Positions 1,640 through 56,042 are shown, numbered from the stretch's first letter. The stretch: 64,000 nt of DNA from an uncultured Bacteriovoracaceae bacterium (GCA_964477895.1 CAYZFQ010000011.1:23825-87824); one strand, 5' to 3'. Made by a program: numbers and translations. The notes: generated from the sequence alone by a model not told the origin.

Positions 1640-4005
1640 GTTCACATGCCGTAACTACGGCAGTTATACTTGCAGCTGGGGCCGGAGAACGCATTCGTGA
1701 TTCTGAAAAGGGTTTGCCTAAACCTCTCGTGGTTCTGGGGGGACTCTATCTGCTCGAGCGTTCCATCTTAAACTTGGATGCTTGCGGAATTAAGCGCTTT
1801 CGAGTGGTCTTAGGCTACCGCGGACAAGAAATTGAGCGAGTGATTCGCAGTTGCAAAAATCTCGTGAGCTTTAAAATTGAATTTCTTTACAATCCCGACT
1901 TCGAAAAAGGAAACGGCTCTTCGCTCGCCAAAGGAGTGGAAGGTCTCCAGGAGCCCTTTCTTTTGACCATGGCCGACCACCTCTTCGGTCCCGACACCCT
2001 TCGACAATTTATTTCCAAAGCTCTTTTAAACGGCGAACGAGCCCAACTTGGGACGGATAAAAACATCAAAGGTGTTTTTGACCTTCCTGATGCCACTAAG
2101 GTTTTAAGTGAAGCCGGCCGAATTGAAAAAATCGGCAAAGAACTTAGTGACTTCAACGAAATCGATACCGGGCTTTTTTATTTCCCTGAGTGGAGTCCGG
2201 AAAAAATTCAAAGCTCTTTTGCTCAAGGAGCAGATTCCGTAAGTGAAATCGTAGCCGAGATTCGCAAAGATCATGGGTTTTTCACGACTTCTTTGGATAA
2301 TGCTTTTTGGCAGGACGTGGACACGCCCGAGATGAAAAAAGAAGCTGAGCGCAGATTGTTTCGCTCTTTGATTAAGCCCACCGACGGTCCCGTGAGCAAA
2401 AAAATTAACCGTAACTTTTCCTTGCCTGTGAGCAAAATTCTTATCCAACTCGGAATAAGTCCCAACGCTGTCACCACCTTTGTTTTTTTATTTACCCTCG
2501 GTGGAGCCGCCCTCGCCACGTCCACCGATTATATGTGGGTGGCTGTGGCGGGCCTCATTTTTCAGATCGCCTCTATTTTAGATGGTTGCGATGGGGAGAT
2601 CGCCCGCCTAACCTACCAAGGCACGGAAGCCGGCGCGTGGTATGACACGCTTACCGACAATGTGCGCTATGGCGTTTTCTTTTGCGCCTTGGGTGTGCAC
2701 GGCTACCGAGTTTCGGGAGAAACCTACTACCTTTGGGCCATGGCCCTCTTTGCACTTTTACTAACCTACATGGTGAGCATGAATGTGAGCTACCTTCGAG
2801 CCACTCGGTCCAAAGGCACGGGACTGGTGGTGACGGCTCAGGTGGAAAAACTCATGGCCGAGCGCCAGAGCTTTTGGGATCGGTACATTTTGGGAGCCCG
2901 CGTCTTGGTGAAGCAGGATGTGAGCGCCCTCATTGTTTTTATCTGTTGCTTGGCGAATCGGCCCACCTGGATTTTCTGGGGCGGCTTTGTTGGCATTGCC
3001 GCCATGACATTTACAGTGGCGCGAGCCCTTAAAGCCGCCTTGCCCGCAAATTCTCAAGGCTCTCCTAAGATTCGAAGTCTATTTTTTCTTCTTATTGGTG
3101 TGATTATTTTTGCCTATCTTTTGAAGAAAATCGACGCCACGGCGGTGGTGGAAGCTATTAGCCATTTGGGCTCCAGCGTTTTTGTAGCCTTCGCAGTGGC
3201 ACCTCTATGGTTTTTTTTCAATTCTCTTAGCCTTCGCACGCTGCTTAAAAACCGGGTTGGTATTTTTGATTTGCTCTACAACCAAGTGGTGGGTGAATCC
3301 TTTAATGTTTTGATTCCCATGGCGGGTTTAGGCGGCGAACCTTACAAAACCAAGCACCTCACGAAATGGGTAGGCCTGGAAGACGCCACCCACGCCATCA
3401 TCAATGACAAACTGCTGCATATTTTGTCGGGCAACGTTTTTACAGCTTTACTTATGTTCTTTGTGTTGGCTGCTGTGCCCATGGAAGGAGCTACTAAAAG
3501 TGCATTGCTTCTCACCACAGTAGCCGTTTCGGGAATTTCACTTTTTATGATCTTGGTGACTCTCTCGCCACTCCCCACTAAATACGCAGGTCGCCTTCTC
3601 AAAAAGTTCAAAATGCTCGACCAGGCCCGAGCAAGCCACGTCCCCCTCGGCACCTATGCCCTCTCATTTTTGTACAAAATGCTCGCTCGAGCTCCTCAGC
3701 TCTTGGAAACCTATATTATCTTTAAACTCCTCGGCGTTGAAACATCTTGGGTGAATATGATCGCGGTAACTGGCCTTATCTCGGCCTCTGCCATGGTCTT
3801 CTTTTTCATTCCCCAGGGAATCGGCGTGAATGAAGGCGGCGTGGTGAAAGCCTTTTCTTTACTCGGTTTAAGCAGTCCTTTGGGTTTGACTTTCGGCATC
3901 ATTCGTCGAGCCCGGGTTGTGTTCTGGGCCGTGGCCGGTATCCTATTGTACGCAACTGTAAGTTTAGTGCAGAAAGGGAGCGCCACATGGAGACCCAGTT
4001 CTTAG
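1636..4005 (+). CDS. Three-domain membrane enzyme: N-terminal nucleotidyltransferase (cytidylyltransferase-like), central CDP-alcohol phosphotransferase, C-terminal flippase-like / LPG-synthase-TM-like domain.
   Basis: ATG at 1636 overlaps the RND stop (ATGA) and follows GGGAG. N-terminus AVILAAGAGERIRD matches the GxGxR NTP-transferase motif. The exact CDP-OH phosphotransferase signature D-G-x2-A-R-x8-G-x3-D-x3-D is present (DGEIARLTYQGTEAGAWYDTLTD). The C-terminal roughly 300 aa is polytopic and resembles the flippase-like domain found fused to lipid-modifying enzymes. Confidence 0.7.
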   Translation: MSSHAVTTAVILAAGAGERIRDSEKGLPKPLVVLGGLYLLERSILNLDACGIKRFRVVLGYRGQEIERVIRSCKNLVSFKIEFLYNPDFEKGNGSSLAKGVEGLQEPFLLTMADHLFGPDTLRQFISKALLNGERAQLGTDKNIKGVFDLPDATKVLSEAGRIEKIGKELSDFNEIDTGLFYFPEWSPEKIQSSFAQGADSVSEIVAEIRKDHGFFTTSLDNAFWQDVDTPEMKKEAERRLFRSLIKPTDGPVSKKINRNFSLPVSKILIQLGISPNAVTTFVFLFTLGGAALATSTDYMWVAVAGLIFQIASILDGCDGEIARLTYQGTEAGAWYDTLTDNVRYGVFFCALGVHGYRVSGETYYLWAMALFALLLTYMVSMNVSYLRATRSKGTGLVVTAQVEKLMAERQSFWDRYILGARVLVKQDVSALIVFICCLANRPTWIFWGGFVGIAAMTFTVARALKAALPANSQGSPKIRSLFFLLIGVIIFAYLLKKIDATAVVEAISHLGSSVFVAFAVAPLWFFFNSLSLRTLLKNRVGIFDLLYNQVVGESFNVLIPMAGLGGEPYKTKHLTKWVGLEDATHAIINDKLLHILSGNVFTALLMFFVLAAVPMEGATKSALLLTTVAVSGISLFMILVTLSPLPTKYAGRLLKKFKMLDQARASHVPLGTYALSFLYKMLARAPQLLETYIIFKLLGVETSWVNMIAVTGLISASAMVFFFIPQGIGVNEGGVVKAFSLLGLSSPLGLTFGIIRRARVVFWAVAGILLYATVSLVQKGSATWRPSS

Positions 4006-4679
4006 CCAAAAGTTTTTTGTTTTTAGCAGGAGTGCAATGCCTGGCCTCGGGCGCGGCCTCAGACTGCAAAACTTTGGAGAATTTTTCTTCCTCTGAAGCA
4101 GGAAAGTTTCCCTTGGGTTGGATTTCTAAATATCCCGAGCACATGCCCGAGATTCTAGAGAAGAAGCTCTACATTGTAGCTCAAGATTCCGGCTTCAAAG
4201 CCGTCCATGCCACCTATGGAAATCATACCGTCACGATTTTGCGCGAACTCAAGGACTCGTGGAATCTGAGTGAGTACCCCATTTTGAAGTGGAAGTGGAA
4301 GGCCGTAAAACTTCCCAAAGATGCCAACGAAGACAAACTTAAGAAGAACGACTCTGCGGCTTCGGTCTATGTGGCCTGGAAATCCAACTCCCTCATGAAA
4401 GCCAAAGCCATTCGATACGCTTGGAGCAGCACTCAGCCTATTGGAGCTCATTTTTCCCGAAGATTTGGCAACGACCAAATCTCCATCAAAGAGAGCGGCA
4501 CATCGAAACTAAACACCTGGGTAGAAGTCGAAACAAATGTTTTAGACGACTACAAAAAATACATGAAGGAACGCAAAGCTCCCGCGAACCCCATTGCCTT
4601 AGTCCTAACCACCGACGCCGACGCGACCCAATCAGAAGCTGAAGCCTTCTATGCTGACTTTAGGATTTGTCGACCTTAA
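3987..4679 (+). CDS. Secreted hypothetical protein, DUF3047-like.
   Basis: Overlaps the upstream gene by 19 nt. Signal-peptide-like N-terminus (FLFLAGVQCLASGAAS). About 220 aa, with lysine- and tryptophan-rich motifs typical of DUF3047. Confidence 0.5.
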   Translation: METQFLAKSFLFLAGVQCLASGAASDCKTLENFSSSEAGKFPLGWISKYPEHMPEILEKKLYIVAQDSGFKAVHATYGNHTVTILRELKDSWNLSEYPILKWKWKAVKLPKDANEDKLKKNDSAASVYVAWKSNSLMKAKAIRYAWSSTQPIGAHFSRRFGNDQISIKESGTSKLNTWVEVETNVLDDYKKYMKERKAPANPIALVLTTDADATQSEAEAFYADFRICRP

Positions 4680-9816: not shown

Positions 9817-9992
9817 GAGCCCCTCCGAAAAATCCAGCTTTTATACGTAGCGTTCTTTGAGCCCCCTCTCAAGCCAGTGTAGTTCTGATATGAAAAATTA
9901 AGGGAAACTGAGGACGTCAACTTGTGCGCCTTGCCGAGGGCGATGGAGCTAAAGCTTTGATTTTTACAAGTGCTGCCCCTACAATCCTAAGA

Positions 9993-11102
9993 ATGAATAA
10001 GCGCTCATTCACTTTTATGCTCCTCACCGCACTTCCATTGTTTTCTTCTTGTGGGCTCTTTCAGCCTCGACAATGCCAACCCGAAGCCGCTCAAAAAATT
10101 GGCTTCGAAGACGCCCTGGCGGGGAATGCAGGTCGCGCCGGCCTCGCCCAAGGTGGCGCCTGCAAAGGGGATTATTCCCCTTCTTCCTTTGAGAAAGATT
10201 ACATGTCGGGCTTTATGCGCGGACGAGAAGAAGCTTGCCAAAGTTCCCGAGCCACAGAATTGGCCGTCCTTGATGCTCGAGAGGGGATGGAGATGAAGCG
10301 CCTGAATATATTTGGAGTCTGTACGGAAGGAAAAAACCTCAAAGAATCTCTCGAAAAGGCTTATCGCAAAGCTTTTGCGTCGGAGTTTTGCAATTTGGAA
10401 AGGGCAAAAAAGTCCGCTCGAAATCAAGCGGATGCTCTGCAGGAAGCCGACTTTTCAGCCTTTAAAAAAGTTTGCGATGCTAAAACTCAAAAAGCACTCA
10501 GCCAAAACTTCACCTTGGAATATGAAACACGGTTGCGAGAGCGCTGCTCGCCTCTGGAACTCCAAGCGCAGGGCATGAAAGATGCTAAGGCTAAAATTGA
10601 CATGATGACATCAATGACGGCTCTCAAAGCCTGCCCCCTAGCCCAACAAGCGGAAGGCCTTGCCGCCTATTCTCGAGGCTATTCCGACACCCAAAGCCTG
10701 ATGTTGAAAGAAGAAGAATTGAAATTAAACCGCGACCGCGAAGAGCGCGAACGACAGCTGCGAGAGCGCGAATTGCAGCTCGGCGAGCAACGACAGCAAA
10801 ATTACACGGCTTCCCAAGGAGGGGGTGTGATTCATAGCGTGAACGGGCAGGACTTACTTGTGCAGTGCGATGTGCGAGCGAGTCGGGCCCAGCTTCTTTT
10901 GAAAAATCTCTCGGAACGCACTTTGTATATGAACGGTCCTATCGAAGTGGACGTTTACGACGAACGGGGCCAGTTTCTCACTCGAGAACGAGACACCCTA
11001 TACAAAACAATTGCGCCCCGCGGCATCGACACTTTGTTTGTGAATATTACTGCGCTGGGCAATCCCACTCGGTGCAGCCTTCGCTTCAGAGGTCCAGGTT
11101 AA
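9993..11102 (+). CDS. Lipoprotein with a coiled-coil, Arg/Glu-rich segment; hypothetical.
   Basis: MNKRSFTFMLLTALPLFSSCG has a lipobox (LFSSC). The internal ATG at 9993 is preferred over the ORF-track start at 9924. Contains an RDREERERQLRERELQLGEQRQQ segment. Confidence 0.5.
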   Translation: MNKRSFTFMLLTALPLFSSCGLFQPRQCQPEAAQKIGFEDALAGNAGRAGLAQGGACKGDYSPSSFEKDYMSGFMRGREEACQSSRATELAVLDAREGMEMKRLNIFGVCTEGKNLKESLEKAYRKAFASEFCNLERAKKSARNQADALQEADFSAFKKVCDAKTQKALSQNFTLEYETRLRERCSPLELQAQGMKDAKAKIDMMTSMTALKACPLAQQAEGLAAYSRGYSDTQSLMLKEEELKLNRDREERERQLRERELQLGEQRQQNYTASQGGGVIHSVNGQDLLVQCDVRASRAQLLLKNLSERTLYMNGPIEVDVYDERGQFLTRERDTLYKTIAPRGIDTLFVNITALGNPTRCSLRFRGPG

Positions 11103-46110: not shown

Positions 46111-46536
46111 ATGGAAAATGTCCACAACAGTACGAAACCCCAAACTCCACTTCTTACGGTGGATGTTTTAATTGATATGGGCGCAGGTCTTTTGGTCTTG
46201 GTGGAACGCAAGAACGAGCCCATGGGCTGGGCCATTCCCGGAGGTTTTGTAGATATAGGCGAAACAGTTGAGGAAGCCGCCCTGAGAGAAGTTAAGGAAG
46301 AAACCGGCCTTGATGTGGAACTTGTGAGACAGTTTCATGTCTATTCGGACCCCAAACGTGACGCGCGTGGCCACTCGGCCTCGGTGGTCTTTGTAGCTCG
46401 AGGCTGGGGCGAGCCCCGAGCCGCCAGCGATGCCAAAAATGTCGGGCTTTTCCATGAAGGAAATTTGCCCCCTGAAATTTGCTTTGATCACCGGCAAATC
46501 CTTAGAGACTACTTCACGGAACGCTACCCCCTCTGA
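46111..46536 (+). CDS. Nudix hydrolase.
   Basis: Nudix box [24 protein letters not shown]. Confidence 0.8.
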
Positions 46537-47660
46537 TGTCGGAGAAAATCCTTCCTCGCATCCTCATTGTGGATGACGAAAAAGACAACCTCGAAACCTT
46601 AAAGCGTTTGCTGCGTAAAGATTTTTTAGTTGAGACTTTCACTTCGGGTGAGGCGGCCTTAGAAAAATTCCGCGCCGATCCACACTTTGATGTGCTTTTG
46701 TCGGACCAACGCATGCCTGGAATCTCGGGATCGGAATTCTTTGCCAAAGCGCTCAATGTTAATCCTCTGCCCACCCGCATTCTTTTAACCGGTTACGCCG
46801 ACCTAGAGGCTGTGACCGAAGCCATCAACTTAGGTCATATTTGGAATTACCTCGCCAAACCCTGGGAGCCCACCGAACTGTTACGAATTCTAAAGCTTGG
46901 AGCGGAGCGGGCCCAGATGCAGGCCTCTCTTGAGAGTTCCCGGCGAGAACTACAGAAAGCCGTGCGCGAACTCCGAGCTCGAGATTGGGCGAGGCGACGC
47001 AGTTTCCAGGTTCTTCTTCATGAATTTCGAACGGTCCCCCAAATCCTCCAAGGTATTCGCGACTTAGGCAGTGACGAGGACACGTCGGTGGTCCGGGAGC
47101 AGTTTTTTGAGTCTCTTTTGGGGCGTTTTCGCACCTTAGAAAGTGAAATTGTAGAAGTCTTAGACGAAGAAAAATCTTGGGCCGCTCTATCGCGGCAAAA
47201 TTTCTCGCTAGCGAATTGGCTTCCTCTTTTGTGTGGGAATATTTCTCTACCCCCACCCACAATTTCTCAGGACCTAGAACTCTATTCCAATGTGGAACTT
47301 TTAACCGAGGACATCTCCCAGATTGCTGAACTCCTGCGAAAAAACACAGCCCAAGCCCCACTGGAAATTAACATCGAAAATAACCTCCTTGTTTTTTCCC
47401 TCTCGGCCCCCACGGCTCCCTATCCGGAAGCCTTGGCTCGTGAGGACCTCGATCTTGAAATCGCTTGGCCCGCCCTTATCGAGCCCTTTGTGGGTGCCGA
47501 GGACTTCACTCGGCATTCTCAGGGACTGCGCTTTGACCTTTCACGGCGAATCCGTCGCTTGGCCGCCCTAGGGGTGCGCGTAGAGTTTCAGATTCAAAAA
47601 GAACCCCACAATTTCAAGGTAGAAGCCCTGCTCACTTTGCCCACTGAAATCTTGGCATAA
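46536..47660 (+). CDS. Response regulator: CheY-like receiver with an uncharacterised ~250-aa C-terminal domain.
   Basis: ILIVDDEKDN...VLLSDQRMPGISG...LLTGYAD...LAKP are the receiver residues. Start overlaps the Nudix stop. Confidence 0.7.
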   Translation: MSEKILPRILIVDDEKDNLETLKRLLRKDFLVETFTSGEAALEKFRADPHFDVLLSDQRMPGISGSEFFAKALNVNPLPTRILLTGYADLEAVTEAINLGHIWNYLAKPWEPTELLRILKLGAERAQMQASLESSRRELQKAVRELRARDWARRRSFQVLLHEFRTVPQILQGIRDLGSDEDTSVVREQFFESLLGRFRTLESEIVEVLDEEKSWAALSRQNFSLANWLPLLCGNISLPPPTISQDLELYSNVELLTEDISQIAELLRKNTAQAPLEINIENNLLVFSLSAPTAPYPEALAREDLDLEIAWPALIEPFVGAEDFTRHSQGLRFDLSRRIRRLAALGVRVEFQIQKEPHNFKVEALLTLPTEILA

Positions 47661-47679
47661 GATTTGTAAGGGCATTCCC

Positions 47680-48900
47680 ATGCCCGGGATTATTTTTTCA
47701 GGTTTTTTAGTTTTGGCTTTGGGTGAAAGTTACACTTTTCCCCGTGCTTCCAACACTATTTGGGTTTCGAGCCCCACCTTTGCCGAGACCCAAGTCAAAG
47801 ACGGATCCTTAATTGTGAAAGCAAAGACTGAGGGTGCCTTTTACATCTCCGGTCTGCGTGGTTTTCTCGATCCTCAAAAGATTGTTGTTATAGATGCGCA
47901 AAATTTTTTAGCGTTAAAAAAGTGCCCCGAAGCGCCGCTAAAATTCTCGGAGTCGACTCGTCTGGAACTGGGGCACTACTCTCTGGAGAATCTCAAAAGT
48001 CTGCGTGACTGCGGCTTTCAAAAGATTCGCCTAGGAAAAGACGATCAAAGGCTCAGTGAGTCGCTCTTTTTGACTCGAGAAGCTGCGGCCCGTGAGAAAG
48101 GTTTAAACTTTTCCCACAGCTTTTTTGAGAAGGGTTTGCGAGTTTTAACATTTTCCCAGCCCCAACCCTCGCTTTCTCAAGCTCAAATTTCATTGGATGA
48201 TCTTTATCCCTTCTACGAATTGCGGGGGCGCGAGGGCCCCCGCCCCGGCCGTACTCTCATTTTTCATCTCACCCTTTTTGAGTTTTCCCGCGCCAAGGCC
48301 CAGGCTTTGGGTGTCACCCTCCCCACCCAAATGCAGCTGAATAACCTGCAGGGGCCTAAGGCTCTGGGGATTGGGGTGGATTTTGGAGAGGCTCTCGGGA
48401 TCGGAAAAATTTTAGCCCAGCCGCAGATTCGCACAAAGCCAGGGGAGAAAGCCACCTTTCAAAGCGGAGGAGAGATTCCGATTCCTCAGCGCAGTCTCAG
48501 CAGTGCCCAGACTCTGTGGAAAAATTATGGACTCCTTATAGAACTCGAACCCGATGCCCAACTTCGTAGCGGCGATCCCGAAATCTCTCTACGATTCAAG
48601 GCGGAATTTTCAGAACCCGACCAGGGACTCTCTATTGGGGGGGTGCCAGGCATGCTCACTCGCCGACTCGAAAGTAACTTTGATCTGCGCTGCGATGAAG
48701 AAACGGTGCTGAGCACACTTCTACAGAGTCGGCGCGGCCAGAACCGCCGAGGTCTAGCTGCTCTCACTCAAATTCCACTTTTAGGCCGACTTTTCTCAAA
48801 CGAGCAAAACAACGAACAATCCTCCGAGCTCTGGTTTGCCCTGCGCCCAAGCTGGGAGGAAATAAAGGTTTCCTCTGAATGGACAAAAAAAACTCTTTAA
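47680..48900 (+). CDS. Secretin (type II/IV-pilus/Tad-type outer-membrane channel, CpaC/RcpA-like).
   Basis: Signal peptide. The C-terminal secretin domain reads ...ILAQPQIRTKPGEKATFQSGGEIPI...YGLLIELEPD...GGVPGMLTRRLESNFDLRCDEETVLS...IPLLGRLFS. Confidence 0.7.
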   Translation: MPGIIFSGFLVLALGESYTFPRASNTIWVSSPTFAETQVKDGSLIVKAKTEGAFYISGLRGFLDPQKIVVIDAQNFLALKKCPEAPLKFSESTRLELGHYSLENLKSLRDCGFQKIRLGKDDQRLSESLFLTREAAAREKGLNFSHSFFEKGLRVLTFSQPQPSLSQAQISLDDLYPFYELRGREGPRPGRTLIFHLTLFEFSRAKAQALGVTLPTQMQLNNLQGPKALGIGVDFGEALGIGKILAQPQIRTKPGEKATFQSGGEIPIPQRSLSSAQTLWKNYGLLIELEPDAQLRSGDPEISLRFKAEFSEPDQGLSIGGVPGMLTRRLESNFDLRCDEETVLSTLLQSRRGQNRRGLAALTQIPLLGRLFSNEQNNEQSSELWFALRPSWEEIKVSSEWTKKTL

Positions 48901-49763
48901 CTGTGATCCACGAACTTGTTTCTGATCCCAGGGTTGAGGATTTGCTCCTGAATCCGGAAGGGGTCTTCGCCTATCGCGAAGGCCGTTGGTCTGATGCCTT
49001 AAGTCCTCTCAGCGCGGCTCAGCTTAATGAATGGTCGAGAAAAATCGCCGAACATAGTGGGCAAAATTTAGGACTGACCCAGCCCACCGTGGATGCCTTT
49101 TTGCCCTTTGAAGGAAAATATTTTTTTAGGGCTCATGTGGCTATTTCACCTCTGGTCTTAGCGGGTCCGGTCATCACTTTGCGTCGCCTGCCTCAACTCG
49201 AGGCTTTCTCATTTCGTGATTTTAAAATTCCCCCTCTCTTAGCTGCGCAACTCAGTCGCGGCATCACGGACGGACTTTCTTTTTTAATTTGCGGAAGCAC
49301 GGGATCCGGCAAAAGCAGCTTTCTCACGGCTCTACTACGTCAGGTCGACTCGCATGAACGAGTTCTTATTTTAGAAGACAGTCCAGAACTTCCCCTCCCC
49401 AATGCTCTCTCTACCAAACTCCTTTGCCGTAACGATCGCTTCGGATTTCGAAACGGGGCGACTTGGGACTTGAGTCACCTCCTCTTTGAAAGTCTGCGCA
49501 TGCGTCCCGACCGTTTGGTATTGGGAGAGTGTCGGGGCACTGAGGCCTATGCCGTAGCCCAAGCTCTTCACACGGGACACCGTGGAATCTTCACAACCCT
49601 TCATGCTGGAAGTTGCCTCCAAGGACGCAGGCGCTTTGAGGAACTTTGCCGGGCACACCCCGATTACTCCACACTTCACTTTGAAGAACTTTGGGACTTT
49701 GTCATTTTGCTATCGGAGAATTCCCAAGGGCAGCGCGAAGTCAAAGAATTCTGGAAAAAATAA
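48879..49763 (+). CDS. VirB11/CpaF/TadA-family secretion ATPase (compact, 294 aa).
   Basis: Walker A FLICGSTGSGKSSFL. ILILEDSPEL. DRLVLGECRGTEA. His box GHRGIFTTLHAGS. 22-nt overlap with the secretin gene. Confidence 0.75.
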   Translation: MDKKNSLTVIHELVSDPRVEDLLLNPEGVFAYREGRWSDALSPLSAAQLNEWSRKIAEHSGQNLGLTQPTVDAFLPFEGKYFFRAHVAISPLVLAGPVITLRRLPQLEAFSFRDFKIPPLLAAQLSRGITDGLSFLICGSTGSGKSSFLTALLRQVDSHERVLILEDSPELPLPNALSTKLLCRNDRFGFRNGATWDLSHLLFESLRMRPDRLVLGECRGTEAYAVAQALHTGHRGIFTTLHAGSCLQGRRRFEELCRAHPDYSTLHFEELWDFVILLSENSQGQREVKEFWKK

Positions 49764-49764
49764 A

Positions 49765-50667
49765 ATGCCTGCCTCTAAGAAAATCTCTCAGCTAGCCCTC
49801 AGCTTGGAAATCGTGCTTTTGCGTATTCAAAGCGGCCAGTGCCTCAGCCAAGCTCTCAGACAATTGCCGTCTTTTTCGATGCCCCGTGGACTTTGCGAAA
49901 ATTGGCTTAACCTTCGTCAGCAAATGGAGGAGGGTCGAATCTCCTGCGAACTCGGCCTTAAGTCTTACATTGATCAACTGCGCCTGGAAGAAGAGTTGCT
50001 GGCAAAACTCCACGAGAAAACCCTCCTTCCAAAACTCCAGCTTTACCTTATCATCGCAGGTGCCCTGGCTTTTGGATCAAGCACTCAGTTTTTTTATCCT
50101 CCCCATCTCCAACCCCAACCTAGCCAGTGTGCTTGGTCTTTGGTCTTGCTCGCAACCGCGGCGTTGTGGATGCATTGGGAACTTCGACGCTTTGCGAGCC
50201 AGCTCTGGTATTGTGAATGGATATTCTTCCTCTCTCGACTTCGGGCCCAGCTGGTCTGGGGCCAAACGCTGAGCTCTTCATTTGCAAAAAGTTACTCCAA
50301 AAAGGAGCTGGGCCGCCTACCCAGCTCCCTCAAGGACAGCCTGATTCAATTTGCCACTCACCTTCACCAGGGGCAAATTGATCGCTTTGCTACCGAAAGT
50401 GGAAGAAAAAACTTTCAGGCTTTTTCTGAAGAATGGAAAGTTCAAGAAGAGCTTTGTGCCATGGCCGACCTTGAAGCCCAAGGCCAAGGCCTGGCTGTCT
50501 ATATCGAAAAAACAATCAGTCTTTCGCACTCCACCTTTGAGCGTAAACTTTCTCTGCAAACACAGATTCTCAGTTTGCGGCTCTTAGCCCCACTTTTTTT
50601 ATTCTGTGTCCCCTCTTTTTTATTGATCATCTTTGCCCCGCTGCTGAATGCGCTGAAAGCACTCTAA
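49765..50667 (+). CDS. TadB/TadC/GspF-like inner-membrane platform protein (putative).
   Basis: ATG immediately after the ATPase stop. GspF-like segment LSLEIVLLRIQSGQCLSQAL. C-terminal transmembrane helix LLAPLFLFCVPSFLLIIFAPLL. About 300 aa. Confidence 0.45.
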   Translation: MPASKKISQLALSLEIVLLRIQSGQCLSQALRQLPSFSMPRGLCENWLNLRQQMEEGRISCELGLKSYIDQLRLEEELLAKLHEKTLLPKLQLYLIIAGALAFGSSTQFFYPPHLQPQPSQCAWSLVLLATAALWMHWELRRFASQLWYCEWIFFLSRLRAQLVWGQTLSSSFAKSYSKKELGRLPSSLKDSLIQFATHLHQGQIDRFATESGRKNFQAFSEEWKVQEELCAMADLEAQGQGLAVYIEKTISLSHSTFERKLSLQTQILSLRLLAPLFLFCVPSFLLIIFAPLLNALKAL

Positions 50668-50701
50668 ATTCTGACTTCGGTTTTGGTCGAAGCCCACCTA
50701 G

Positions 50702-50727
50702 TGTAGGACTTAGTCATTTTTTACCAC
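50702..50727. repeat. Left copy of a perfect 26-bp inverted repeat (TGTAGGACTTAGTCATTTTTTACCAC) flanking the XRE-family gene.
   Basis: Exact reverse complement of 51271-51296. Read directly from the sequence. Confidence 0.8.
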
Positions 50728-50774
50728 TTGGCTTCGGCATCTACGCCAGGCCCAGGTTTTGCAAAGGCAAAGCC

Positions 50775-51257
50775 ATGTCTAATCATGAGCACTTTAGTAA
50801 ATTCTCTAAGCAATACTTTCGAAACTTTTTCAAAAGGTGGCATCGGGAATGGGGGCGGTCTCGGCCCTTTATTTTTATACATCTTAATTCTCAAAATTTT
50901 GAACTGACTTTTGTGGACGAACTAGCGACTGGAGATTTATCCACGATTCTCGAGAATCCTCGCAGCCTCCACCTTAAAATGAGAGCTTTTCGAGTTCAGG
51001 CTGGATTGTCGCAGCAAGAATGGGCAAAGAAACTGGGAGTATCTGCTTCCAATGTCACAAAAATCGAACGGGGAAGCCGAGAACCTGGCCTGAAGATTAT
51101 TCGAAAATTTTGCGAATACGTGGCGACATGCTCTGCGCCTCCAACGATAGATAGCACCAGCACTACGGATTCACAGACTCCAAAGAAGCGAAGTCTTCCC
51201 GGAGTAGACGACGATACGGCCATATTAAAATGGCTTAGCTCCCTGCGGCGCCGGTGA
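50775..51257 (+). CDS. XRE-family helix-turn-helix protein.
   Basis: LKMRAFRVQAGLSQQEWAKKLGVSASNVTKIERGSREP (HTH_XRE). Lies between two 26-bp inverted repeats. Confidence 0.6.
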   Translation: MSNHEHFSKFSKQYFRNFFKRWHREWGRSRPFIFIHLNSQNFELTFVDELATGDLSTILENPRSLHLKMRAFRVQAGLSQQEWAKKLGVSASNVTKIERGSREPGLKIIRKFCEYVATCSAPPTIDSTSTTDSQTPKKRSLPGVDDDTAILKWLSSLRRR

Positions 51258-51270
51258 ATCGAAGCCTTGG

Positions 51271-51296
51271 GTGGTAAAAAATGACTAAGTCCTACA
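51271..51296. repeat. Right copy of the 26-bp inverted repeat (GTGGTAAAAAATGACTAAGTCCTACA).
   Basis: Exact reverse complement of 50702-50727. Confidence 0.8.
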
Positions 51297-51339
51297 TGAG
51301 ACGAGGACGCATAATCTATAAGCCGCAAAGCTACCGGCA

Positions 51340-52290
51340 CTAGATCTCCAAAATATTTTTCTTTGCGGGACCCTCTAACAATTCTTTAGGCAAAGATTCC
51401 AAAATGCATTTTTCCAGGGCACCCAAAATATCCGTCTTCCACTGCTCTCGTCGATAGACCAGAGAAATCTCCCGTACCGGTTGCGCACCGGCAAAACTTC
51501 GAAGCTGCGATTTCTTCTCAGCCGAAGTGAGGTGCTCTACAAAAAGCTGGGGCAGCAAAGTGTATCCCCGGCCTCGAAGTATTAAGTAGCGTAGGGTTTC
51601 TAAATTGGCCCCCTCAAAGTGAATATTTTTATAAAGACTTCGAGTGCCACGGGGTGTGCACAGGTGAATGACCTGATTTCTCAAGCAGTGTCCGTCCTTA
51701 AGAAGCCACAAGTCTTCACCCTTAAGATCCTGCGGTCGAATTTCCTGGAGCCTTCCAAGTGAAGAGTTTTTGTGAAAGTACAAATAGAACCTTTCGTAAA
51801 ATAGCTTTCTCTCGAACAAGACTTTCTCATGAAGTGGGGTGGCTAAAATCGCGGCGTCGAGCTGGTCTTTGACCAAGGCCTCTACACAGTCTTCGGTCTT
51901 CATTTCATCCACTAGTAAGTCCACCTGAGGAAAGTCCTTTGAAAATTGTCCTGCAAAAAGAGGCAACAAATAGGGAGCCAGGGTTGGAATCATAGCCAGA
52001 CGAAAGTCTCCACTTAGGATTTTTTCGTCGGCACGACTCATATGCAAAAGCTTATTGTGTTCTCGAAGAACAGCCTGAGCCTGATCAATAAATCTTCGAC
52101 CTTTGTCGGTGGCCAAAATGGGTTTTTTCATCCGATCGAATATCAGAAAACCGATCTCCGCTTCCACCTTCTGAATTTGCATGCTCAAACTGGGTTGGGA
52201 GATGTGACAATGCCTTGAAGCCTGGGCGAAATGCCGAAATTTATCAACGGCCACAATATATTCTAACTGGCTTAGGGTGGGCATAAGCAC
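51340..52290 (-). CDS. oxyR: LysR-family regulator, OxyR-like.
   Basis: N-terminal HTH MPTLSQLEYIVAVDKFRHFAQASRHCHISQPSLSMQIQKVE. GHCLRNQVIHLC gives the Cys-x8-Cys redox pair spacing of OxyR. Divergent from ahpC. Confidence 0.8.
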   Translation of the reverse strand: MLMPTLSQLEYIVAVDKFRHFAQASRHCHISQPSLSMQIQKVEAEIGFLIFDRMKKPILATDKGRRFIDQAQAVLREHNKLLHMSRADEKILSGDFRLAMIPTLAPYLLPLFAGQFSKDFPQVDLLVDEMKTEDCVEALVKDQLDAAILATPLHEKVLFERKLFYERFYLYFHKNSSLGRLQEIRPQDLKGEDLWLLKDGHCLRNQVIHLCTPRGTRSLYKNIHFEGANLETLRYLILRGRGYTLLPQLFVEHLTSAEKKSQLRSFAGAQPVREISLVYRREQWKTDILGALEKCILESLPKELLEGPAKKNILEI

Positions 52291-52301
52291 TCCTTCATTT
52301 T

Positions 52302-52337
52302 ATAGCTTTAAACTATCATTATATAGAAACAATCGAT
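52302..52337. promoter_or_regulatory. Putative OxyR binding site in the oxyR-ahpC divergent region.
   Basis: The sequence ATAG-n7-CTAT-n6-ATAG-n7-CGAT is close to the ATAG-n7-CTAT-n7-ATAG-n7-CTAT consensus. Confidence 0.45.
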
Positions 52338-52405
52338 TTTATATATCTTAAAATTTGGGCCATAGTCAGATCTTCAACCCACTAAAAATTTTAGGAGAAA
52401 ACAAA

Positions 52406-52939
52406 ATGTTAGGAATAGGAAAAAAGTTCCCAGATTTTAAGGTCAAAGCCACAGTGTCCACCGACCCCAAAACCGCCTTTGCGGATATCACTCGCCATGA
52501 TTTCAAAGGGAAGTGGCTTGTGCTCTTTTTTTACCCTAAGGACTTCACCTTCGTGTGCCCCACCGAGATCAAGGCCTTCGGCGACTTAAACGGTCAATTT
52601 AAAGACCGTGACGCTCAACTTCTTACAGCCAGCGTGGACTCAGAATTTGTTCACTTGGCTTGGCGGCAAAATCATGCCGATTTAAAGGACTTGCCCATCC
52701 CCATGTTGGCCGACGTCAAACGAGACCTCTCCACCCAATTGGGCATTTTAGACGAAAACGAAGGTGTCTCTCAAAGAGCCACCTACATCGTGGACCCCGA
52801 TGGCATCATTCGTTTTGTTTATGTGACAGATCTTAATGTAGGTCGAAATCCCAAAGAAGTCTTACGAGTACTCGACGCTTTGCAAACGGATGAACTCTGT
52901 CCCTGCAACTGGGAAAAGGGTCAAAAAACTTTAGGATAA
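52406..52939 (+). CDS. ahpC: 2-Cys peroxiredoxin AhpC.
   Basis: FTFVCPTEI peroxidatic-Cys motif. AGGAG n8 ATG at 52406. Resolving Cys near the C-terminus (ELCPCNWEKG). Confidence 0.9.
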   Translation: MLGIGKKFPDFKVKATVSTDPKTAFADITRHDFKGKWLVLFFYPKDFTFVCPTEIKAFGDLNGQFKDRDAQLLTASVDSEFVHLAWRQNHADLKDLPIPMLADVKRDLSTQLGILDENEGVSQRATYIVDPDGIIRFVYVTDLNVGRNPKEVLRVLDALQTDELCPCNWEKGQKTLG

Positions 52940-55998: not shown

Positions 55999-56042
55999 CC
56001 GGAATTCAGGTATACCGGTTAACCAGTATACCTGAATTCCGG
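55999..56042. repeat. 44-bp near-perfect palindrome (17-bp arms CCGGAATTCAGGTATAC / GTATACCTGAATTCCGG around C-GGTTAACC-A) between the response-regulator gene and rpsA. It may act as a terminator or a protein-binding site.
   Basis: Read directly from the sequence. Followed by TTTGCATTTTGCC. Confidence 0.55.

Follow-up and report, generated by a model that had tools for sequence, protein, structure and literature searches.

The gene for a 160-aa XRE-type regulator in the window (the whole stretch of DNA analysed, 64,000 nt from an uncultured Bacteriovoracaceae bacterium) is bracketed by a perfect 26-bp inverted repeat. A bracket of the same kind is conserved around the genes of distant homologues, where its arms sit near the start and stop and carry an operator-like core, and the product is of a DNA-binding type. 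We propose, with a probability of roughly 0.55, that the two arms are paired operators for the encoded protein, which would probably close an autoregulatory DNA loop of 0.43–0.57 kb. This reading is favoured because the bracket has been kept around distant homologues of a DNA-binding protein and because the relatives share the operator-like core; it draws on four loci. That the protein binds the arms, that its N-terminal domain mediates oligomerization, that a loop forms and that regulation is negative are what we infer from these sequences.

A regulator gene within an inverted repeat

The earlier note, made from the sequence alone, had described a perfect 26-bp inverted repeat in the two gaps flanking a 160-aa HTH gene. 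Reading of the sequence, a repeat finder and a pattern search agreed on both arms, and the description was confirmed by all three methods. The features of the locus are as follows.

50675-50692, + strand: 6-bp hairpin CTTCGG/TCGAAG after the T2SSF-like gene, without a T-run
50702-50727, + strand: left arm, TGTAGGACTTAGTCATTTTTTACCAC, consisting of an outer part TGTAGGACT, hexamer 1 TAGTCA (50711-50716), a T5 spacer and hexamer 2 TACCAC (50722-50727)
50730-50736, + strand: inner extension of the left arm, GGCTTCG, with TT between extension and arm
50759-50771, + strand: leader TTGCAAAGGCAAA, read from the sequence, directly 5' of the ATG and holding the likely Shine-Dalgarno sequence
50775-51257, + strand: gene for the 160-aa XRE-type regulator (HTH_3 Pfam match)
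51260-51266, + strand: inner extension of the right arm, CGAAGCC, complement of 50730-50736, with TTGG between extension and arm
51271-51296, - strand: right arm, exact reverse complement of the left arm

The arms are 26 nt each, 100% complementary and separated by 543 nt, giving a unit of 595 bp. Neither overlaps a gene. The gap from the T2SSF-like gene's stop (50667) to the ATG at 50775 contains the left arm, whose 3' end is 47 nt from that ATG; the right arm begins 14 nt past the regulator stop (51257), within the 82-nt gap to the stop of the convergent oxyR (51340). Consistent with the earlier impression, gained by eye from the intergenic regions, that the 26-mer has no further copy in the window, a pattern search of the 64 kb allowing up to 3 mismatches returned the two arms alone, and none of 100 dinucleotide shuffles contained a match. 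A window-wide scan further showed that this is the sole long-range perfect inverted repeat of such size. The inverted repeat is real and non-random. Inward of the arms, pairing resumes for 7 bp (GGCTTCG/CGAAGCC) after a 2/4-nt offset, and the two offset positions would be U.G wobbles if the + strand were RNA.

The immediate surroundings contain further repeats. The octamer TCGAAGCC occurs as a direct repeat just upstream of both arms, at 50687-50694 and 51259-51266. Its left copy forms the 3' half of the CTTCGG/TCGAAG hairpin and could instead pair with GGCTTCGG at 50730-50737, the two pairings being mutually exclusive. Directly upstream of the regulator, positions 46536-50667 (+ strand) form a compact operon-like module encoding a response regulator with a long C-terminal extension, a secretin, a T2SSE-type ATPase and a T2SSF-like protein. 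The mechanically called T2SSF-like ORF overlaps the ATPase gene by 180 nt; a start at 49765 gives a 300-aa product, as in a metagenome contig. Farther downstream, a 44-bp near-perfect palindrome without a loop (55999-56042, CCGGAATTCAGGTATACCGGTT / AACCAGTATACCTGAATTCCGG), followed by TTTGCATTTTG, lies in the space that separates rpsA (56157) from a response-regulator-like gene.

The XRE-family identity of the enclosed gene, also proposed in the earlier note, is borne out by a Pfam HTH_3 match (PF01381) at aa 70-115, scoring 44.3 bits against a gathering cut-off of 23. This domain is preceded by a family-specific N-terminal domain of about 65 aa (aa 1-68), predicted to form a helix and a β-hairpin, and is followed by a low-complexity linker and a C-terminal motif, LPGVDDDTAILKWL. 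Neither the first 68 residues nor the final ~45 matched anything in Pfam, NCBIfam, PHROGs or PDB; the HTH was the sole match across these four collections, and no catalytic domain was detected in them. Among the PDB sequence matches, which are XRE-type domains, C.BclI (E = 1e-6) and C.AhdI (E = 4e-5) are among the better ones. An AlphaFold monomer model was confident for the HTH alone and weak in the N-terminal part, where the mean pLDDT of 10-residue blocks over aa 1-60 was 43-68. A fold search with this model matched XRE domains only, through the HTH part.

The likely Shine-Dalgarno sequence, AAGG at 50765-50768, lies outside the arm. Its leader, TTGCAAAGGCAAA, is identical in one relative (L005, 119-131) although the proteins are just ~35-37% identical, and a second relative (L003, 9985-9997) has the similar TTGCTAAGGCAGG; the leader also includes a small TTGC/GCAA inverted repeat. 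Scans of the window, L003, L004 and L005 found no sigma-70-like promoter near the left arm, and promoter and terminator scans located nothing usable for the regulator gene. Within the coding sequence, a terminator-like hairpin with a T-run is present in the window (50851-50869), L004 (3726-3738) and L005 (205-220), that is, at homologous codons (WG...PFIFI) in 3 of 4 family genes. It may just reflect codon composition, G-rich for Trp-Gly and T-rich for Pro-Phe-Ile; alternatively, it may act as an attenuator within the gene.

Bracketed homologues and the anatomy of the arms

The family is small, comprising seven proteins among ~15 billion (P0001, P0002, P0152, P0013, P0034, P0042 and P0057). 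A word-indexed search of 5.8 billion proteins returned the identical protein, one 57% homologue and nothing else. Exhaustive HMMER searching of 1.84 billion cluster representatives added four more distant full-length relatives at 28-37% identity (P0013, P0034, P0042 and P0057), and a profile search added P0152. In alignments, all seven share the N-terminal motif FFKRW..WG..PF.F..FE..F.DE before the HTH, and a C-terminal LPGV[DE]DDxA[IL]xxWL is common to P0001, P0002 and P0152. Each protein is a singleton on one contig, and members are 28-57% identical. No match was found in a species-representative genome collection, nor did two metagenome scans, one queried with the family alignment and the other with P0034, return any. 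Viral contigs lacked both the family and the 26-mer. The plasmid collection gave HTH-only matches and no full-length family match; likewise, the phage collection gave no full-length match, and its matches were to the HTH region except for one in Bacillus phage vB_BhaS-171, at 26% identity over aa 8-118.

Four loci were compared as DNA, namely the window, L003, L004 and L005; the loci of P0002, P0152 and P0034 were left out. In each of the three relatives compared as DNA (28-37% identity), an inverted repeat likewise surrounds the gene, which with the window makes 4/4 loci. The brackets of the relatives are listed below.

L003: gene 10001-10489; arms 9944-9974 and 10417-10447; 31 nt, 84% complementary
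L004: gene 3642-4046; arms 3604-3634 and 4031-4061; 31 nt, 87% complementary
L005: gene 135-509; arms 11-30 and 506-525; 20 nt, 85% complementary

To assess these repeats statistically, the 130 nt before the ATG were searched against the 220 nt around the stop, with 500 dinucleotide shuffles per locus. The observed repeat was reached by 0/500 shuffles in the window, L003 and L004, and the result was weaker for L005. The distance from the end of the left arm to the ATG is 47 nt in the window, 26 nt in L003 and 7 nt in L004. At the other end of the gene, the right arms of L004 and L005 overlap the last codons or stop, and that of L003 lies 72 nt within the ORF. The earlier note had considered that the repeats might prove to be parts of conserved coding sequence; this does not hold in the window. 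In the relatives, however, the right arm does take in 3'-terminal coding sequence. L005 additionally carries a third, upstream copy of the arm, absent from the other loci; paired with site 1, this site 2 gives a perfect inverted repeat of 28 nt (4-31 / 55-82) with a 23-nt spacer upstream of the gene. Inward complementarity past the arms is found in L005 as well (38-51 / 446-459, 13/14).

The genomic contexts of the loci are unrelated and housekeeping: a T2SS-like module, oxyR, ahpC and ahpD in the window; peptidase S8, a second HTH gene and an endonuclease in L003; ComM-like and phosphoribosyltransferase genes and DsbD in L004. The downstream neighbour is convergent in 4/4 loci where it is known, the P0034 contig included. 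In L003 this neighbour is an ordinary XRE/HTH_3 gene of 138 aa (10523-10939, - strand), which lies 34 nt past the stop of the family gene. In L004, a tandem repeat of 19 bp in 4.1 copies (ATTCTGTTCGGAACATAAA, 4074-4152) starts 13 nt after the right arm and continues into the convergent DsbD-like gene at that gene's 3' end; TGTTCG hexamers resembling those of the arms occur within it.

The arms of the four loci align in register, as an outer part of ~12-14 nt followed by two hexamers with a 5-nt AT-rich spacer between them, with the following cores.

L004, left arm: TGATCA, TATTT, TGATCA (spacer of the right arm, TTTTT)
L003, left arm: TGATCA, TAATT, TGACCA
L005, site 1: TGTTCA, AAAAC, TGTTCA
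Window, both arms identical: TAGTCA, TTTTT, TACCAC

The core of the relatives' arms is an operator-like TGATCA-N5-TGAYCA, and those of L003 and L004 are 17-bp pseudo-palindromes, a form typical of XRE operators. A motif matrix made from these sites gave high scores at the two arms alone in both L003 (14 kb) and L004 (5 kb), and the arms of these two loci are clearly alike (p<0.0005). The window arm resembles the L004 arms alone (AGGACTTnnTCATnTTTT, 17/21; p about 0.005-0.009 per arm, uncorrected). When scored with a matrix built without the window, the window arms reached 1.8 bits and a rank of about 790 of 128,000, which is not significant; the shared motif is therefore solid for the relatives and partial for the window locus. 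The best window match to the family operator matrix, TGATCAAAATTTTCTCA at 82-98 (18.5 bits), lies inside the first large ORF and is probably fortuitous, because ~0.35 such matches are expected by chance. Likeness of the A-tract cores to IHF sites and hix sites was also considered and dropped as too loose.

Within loci, the two arms seldom differ in the hexamers: matches were counted in 46/48 hexamer cells against 15/20 spacer cells (Fisher p=0.02), and in 38/54 outer cells. Between loci, 21/31 arm columns changed on both arms together, with complementarity kept within each locus. Residues around the conserved SN..IE of the HTH region vary with the hexamers: SNVTKIE goes with TAGTCA, SNL[CS]AIE with TGATCA and SNLASVE with TGTTCA (n=4). 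This parallel variation would fit co-evolution of protein and site, in four cases only; the HTH helix to which these residues are assigned is presumptive.

Proposed paired operators weighed against alternatives

If the arms are paired operators, they would serve as cis-regulatory sites of the enclosed gene, mirror-oriented at its 5' and 3' ends. A protein dimer would bind the hexamer pair of each arm, the hexamers lying one helical turn apart, and the N-terminal domain would be the candidate bridge that associates the dimers bound at both arms. Looping out the 0.43–0.57-kb gene in this way would make negative autoregulation at the left arm cooperative and switch-like. Transcription entering from the convergent downstream gene may also be blocked at the right arm, a shielding role suggested by the convergent arrangement in 4/4 loci. 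Sites inside coding sequence, as seen for the right arms of L003, L004 and L005, would suit DNA operators, and the three copies in L005 are as might be expected for multiple operators.

Several observations speak against operators. The scans placed no sigma-70-like promoter relative to the left arm at any of the four loci, and the window arms do not significantly match the matrix of the other loci. Identity of 26/26 exceeds what an operator needs; at the L003/L004 divergence of 0.145 per site, the chance of a perfect 26-mer is 0.017. Moreover, complementarity runs inward past the recognizable protein motif in the window and L005, and this extension fits nucleic-acid pairing or recent duplication better than selection on the sites alone. 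Together, the perfect identity and the inward extension suggest either that pairing itself is selected or that the copies were recently homogenized. For the window arms, being identical throughout probably reflects recent homogenization, for example by gene conversion or template switching.

The earlier note had offered three options, and they fared differently. Paired operators gained from the bracket kept in homologues and from the operator-like core of the relatives, and the MITE-like element lost ground. The RNA stem proved thermodynamically possible, but drew no specific support, and the arrangement in L005 argues against it. This last alternative, which we consider unlikely, holds that one transcript contains both arms and that its 5' and 3' flanks pair as a 26-36-bp duplex around the whole mRNA; the duplex would act as an RNase III substrate or a stabilizing clamp, providing post-transcriptional control of the regulator level. 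Supporting it, the minimum-free-energy folds contain the long-range stem (z = -4.1 for the window, -3.0 for L004 and -2.8 for L003), and the arm sequence varies among loci yet stays complementary within each, as the 21/31 jointly changed columns show. The perfect 26/26 arms and the inward extension with its U.G-wobble offsets also fit selection on a whole duplex, and pairing between the 5' and 3' UTRs of the icaR mRNA provides a precedent (PMC3868564).

However, a hexamer core common to L003, L004 and L005 would be unexpected for a mere stem, and arm-to-arm mismatches gather outside the hexamers. Sense-strand G.U pairs account for 0/9 arm mismatches in L003 and L004, against 2/2 in the inner extension of the window, a set too small to decide. 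The first site of L005 pairs perfectly with the second upstream copy, and the predicted fold takes this local hairpin rather than a 5'-3' stem. The right arm of L003 is inside the translated ORF. The distance from arm to ATG ranges from 7 to 47 nt among loci, which precludes a consistent effect on the ribosome-binding site; in the window, pairing over that site was not found, the arm stopping 47 nt short of the ATG. A search of Rfam gave no match in window positions 50000-52500.

It is improbable that the locus is either a minimal terminal-inverted-repeat cassette, as a living or domesticated selfish element, or a conserved post-transcriptional device in which the arms clamp the mRNA ends in a perfect 26-bp duplex. 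Such a cassette would encode nothing but an HTH protein that binds its ends and has a new N-terminal domain, and a factor encoded elsewhere would move or flip the cassette. If the cassette is real, no autonomous bacterial element described so far is as small or as simple.

Decidedly improbable is the view that the arms are the terminal inverted repeats of a tiny IS- or MITE-like element, living or fossil, whose HTH protein would bind the ends with a transposase acting in trans. The layout is IS-like, with a left repeat abutting the start codon and a right repeat overlapping or following the stop; the same asymmetric site stands at both ends in mirror orientation, and the four loci occupy unrelated genomic contexts. 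Yet no target-site duplication is present in the window (CTAG / TGAG), where the earlier note had already reported its lack and is confirmed, or in L004 (CACA / AGCA) and L003 (GCTG / GTAC). The product has no catalytic domain in Pfam, NCBIfam, PHROGs or PDB, no transposase or recombinase was found within ~13 kb, and there is no second copy in the 64 kb. Further arguing against mobility, family proteins are singletons on one contig each and 28-57% rather than nearly 100% identical, and no full-length family match was found in phage or plasmid collections or viral contigs. The MITE-like headline of the earlier note is therefore unsupported, given the lack of a target duplication, of a transposase or recombinase and of a second window copy, together with the singleton proteins and housekeeping contexts. 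An OxyR-based genome scan for an empty site yielded one Oligoflexia MAG (OxyR 55% identity), which keeps ahpC-ahpD and has a membrane-protein gene instead of the regulator locus downstream of oxyR; it is uninformative as an empty site because it lacks synteny downstream of oxyR.

Inversion of the 595-bp segment by a recombinase encoded elsewhere, which would switch the regulator gene relative to outside promoters, is highly improbable: invertons are indeed sought by such a signature, a 0.4-0.6-kb segment with inverted repeats of 26-31 bp on either side, and the hix sites of the Hin system are 26 bp, the length of the window arms, but no recombinase was found near the loci (within ~13 kb in the window, and in L003 and L004), and flipping might change nothing because the segment carries the whole gene, possibly with its own promoter. 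Against inversion also, assembled contigs of run SRR13208906 cross the arms in the reference orientation with 0 mismatches, L007 (48284-51187) the left and L001 (51160-54901) the right; they break at 51160-51187 and not at the arms, and the orientation result covers these two Logan contigs from the one run.

Implications and comparison with known systems

If the arms are indeed paired operators, the locus would be a compact, self-contained module, a 0.5-kb gene within its own mirror-image binding sites. It would be conserved across a rare, uncharacterized regulator family of Oligoflexia-like bacteria and would offer a natural minimal model for DNA-looping autoregulation. The new ~65-aa domain would gain a function, the bridging of dimers at distant sites. 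More generally, the locus shows that a gene can sit within a perfect inverted repeat without having to be mobile.

Several known systems share parts of this design. Controller (C) proteins of restriction-modification systems bind C-boxes of the form GACT..AGTC, and the window arm similarly holds GACT-T-AGTC. In contrast to the window arms, which bracket the gene, C-boxes sit together upstream of it. A C-box reading was rejected, as the arms of L003, L004 and L005 lack the GACT/AGTC palindrome and no restriction or methylase genes are nearby.

Insertion sequences with terminal inverted repeats can encode an end-binding HTH protein, such as InsA of IS1. Like them, the locus is short: inverted repeats of ~25-30 bp enclose an ORF that starts just inside the left one and extends into the right one, and its HTH protein would be expected to bind the ends. 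It differs in having no transposase domain, frame-shifted second ORF or target duplication, and in its single copy, housekeeping contexts and deep divergence.

In Staphylococcus aureus, the Shine-Dalgarno region of the icaR mRNA is the pairing partner of the 3' UTR (PMC3868564). The present locus would resemble it as a regulator mRNA whose 3' flank is complementary to its 5' flank, with a long duplex suiting RNase III. Unlike in icaR, the window arm ends 47 nt before the ATG, this distance varies, the core is protein-site-like and the right arm is coding in the relatives.

Looping repressors are the remaining comparison. Rco of pLS20 is a tetramer that binds two operators, each an array of a repeated short motif, with looping between them (PMC4207663); λ CI (OL-OR) forms a 2.3-kb loop (PMC2685085), phage 186 CI is a looping repressor with flanking FL/FR sites (PMC3675496), and LacI, whose operators are O1, O2 and O3, acts at O3 as a roadblock on lacI transcription (PMC3711431). 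In common with these repressors, the loci described here have at least two matched sites hundreds of bp apart, with one site upstream of the gene, where its own promoter region might be, and one that may lie at its 3' end or inside it. They differ in that the window sites bracket the regulator's own small gene alone, and in that the sites are asymmetric, ~30 bp long and strictly mirror-oriented, in a layout conserved across the family. Finally, where the looping repressors use a C-terminal oligomerization domain, the candidate for this role here is an uncharacterized N-terminal domain.
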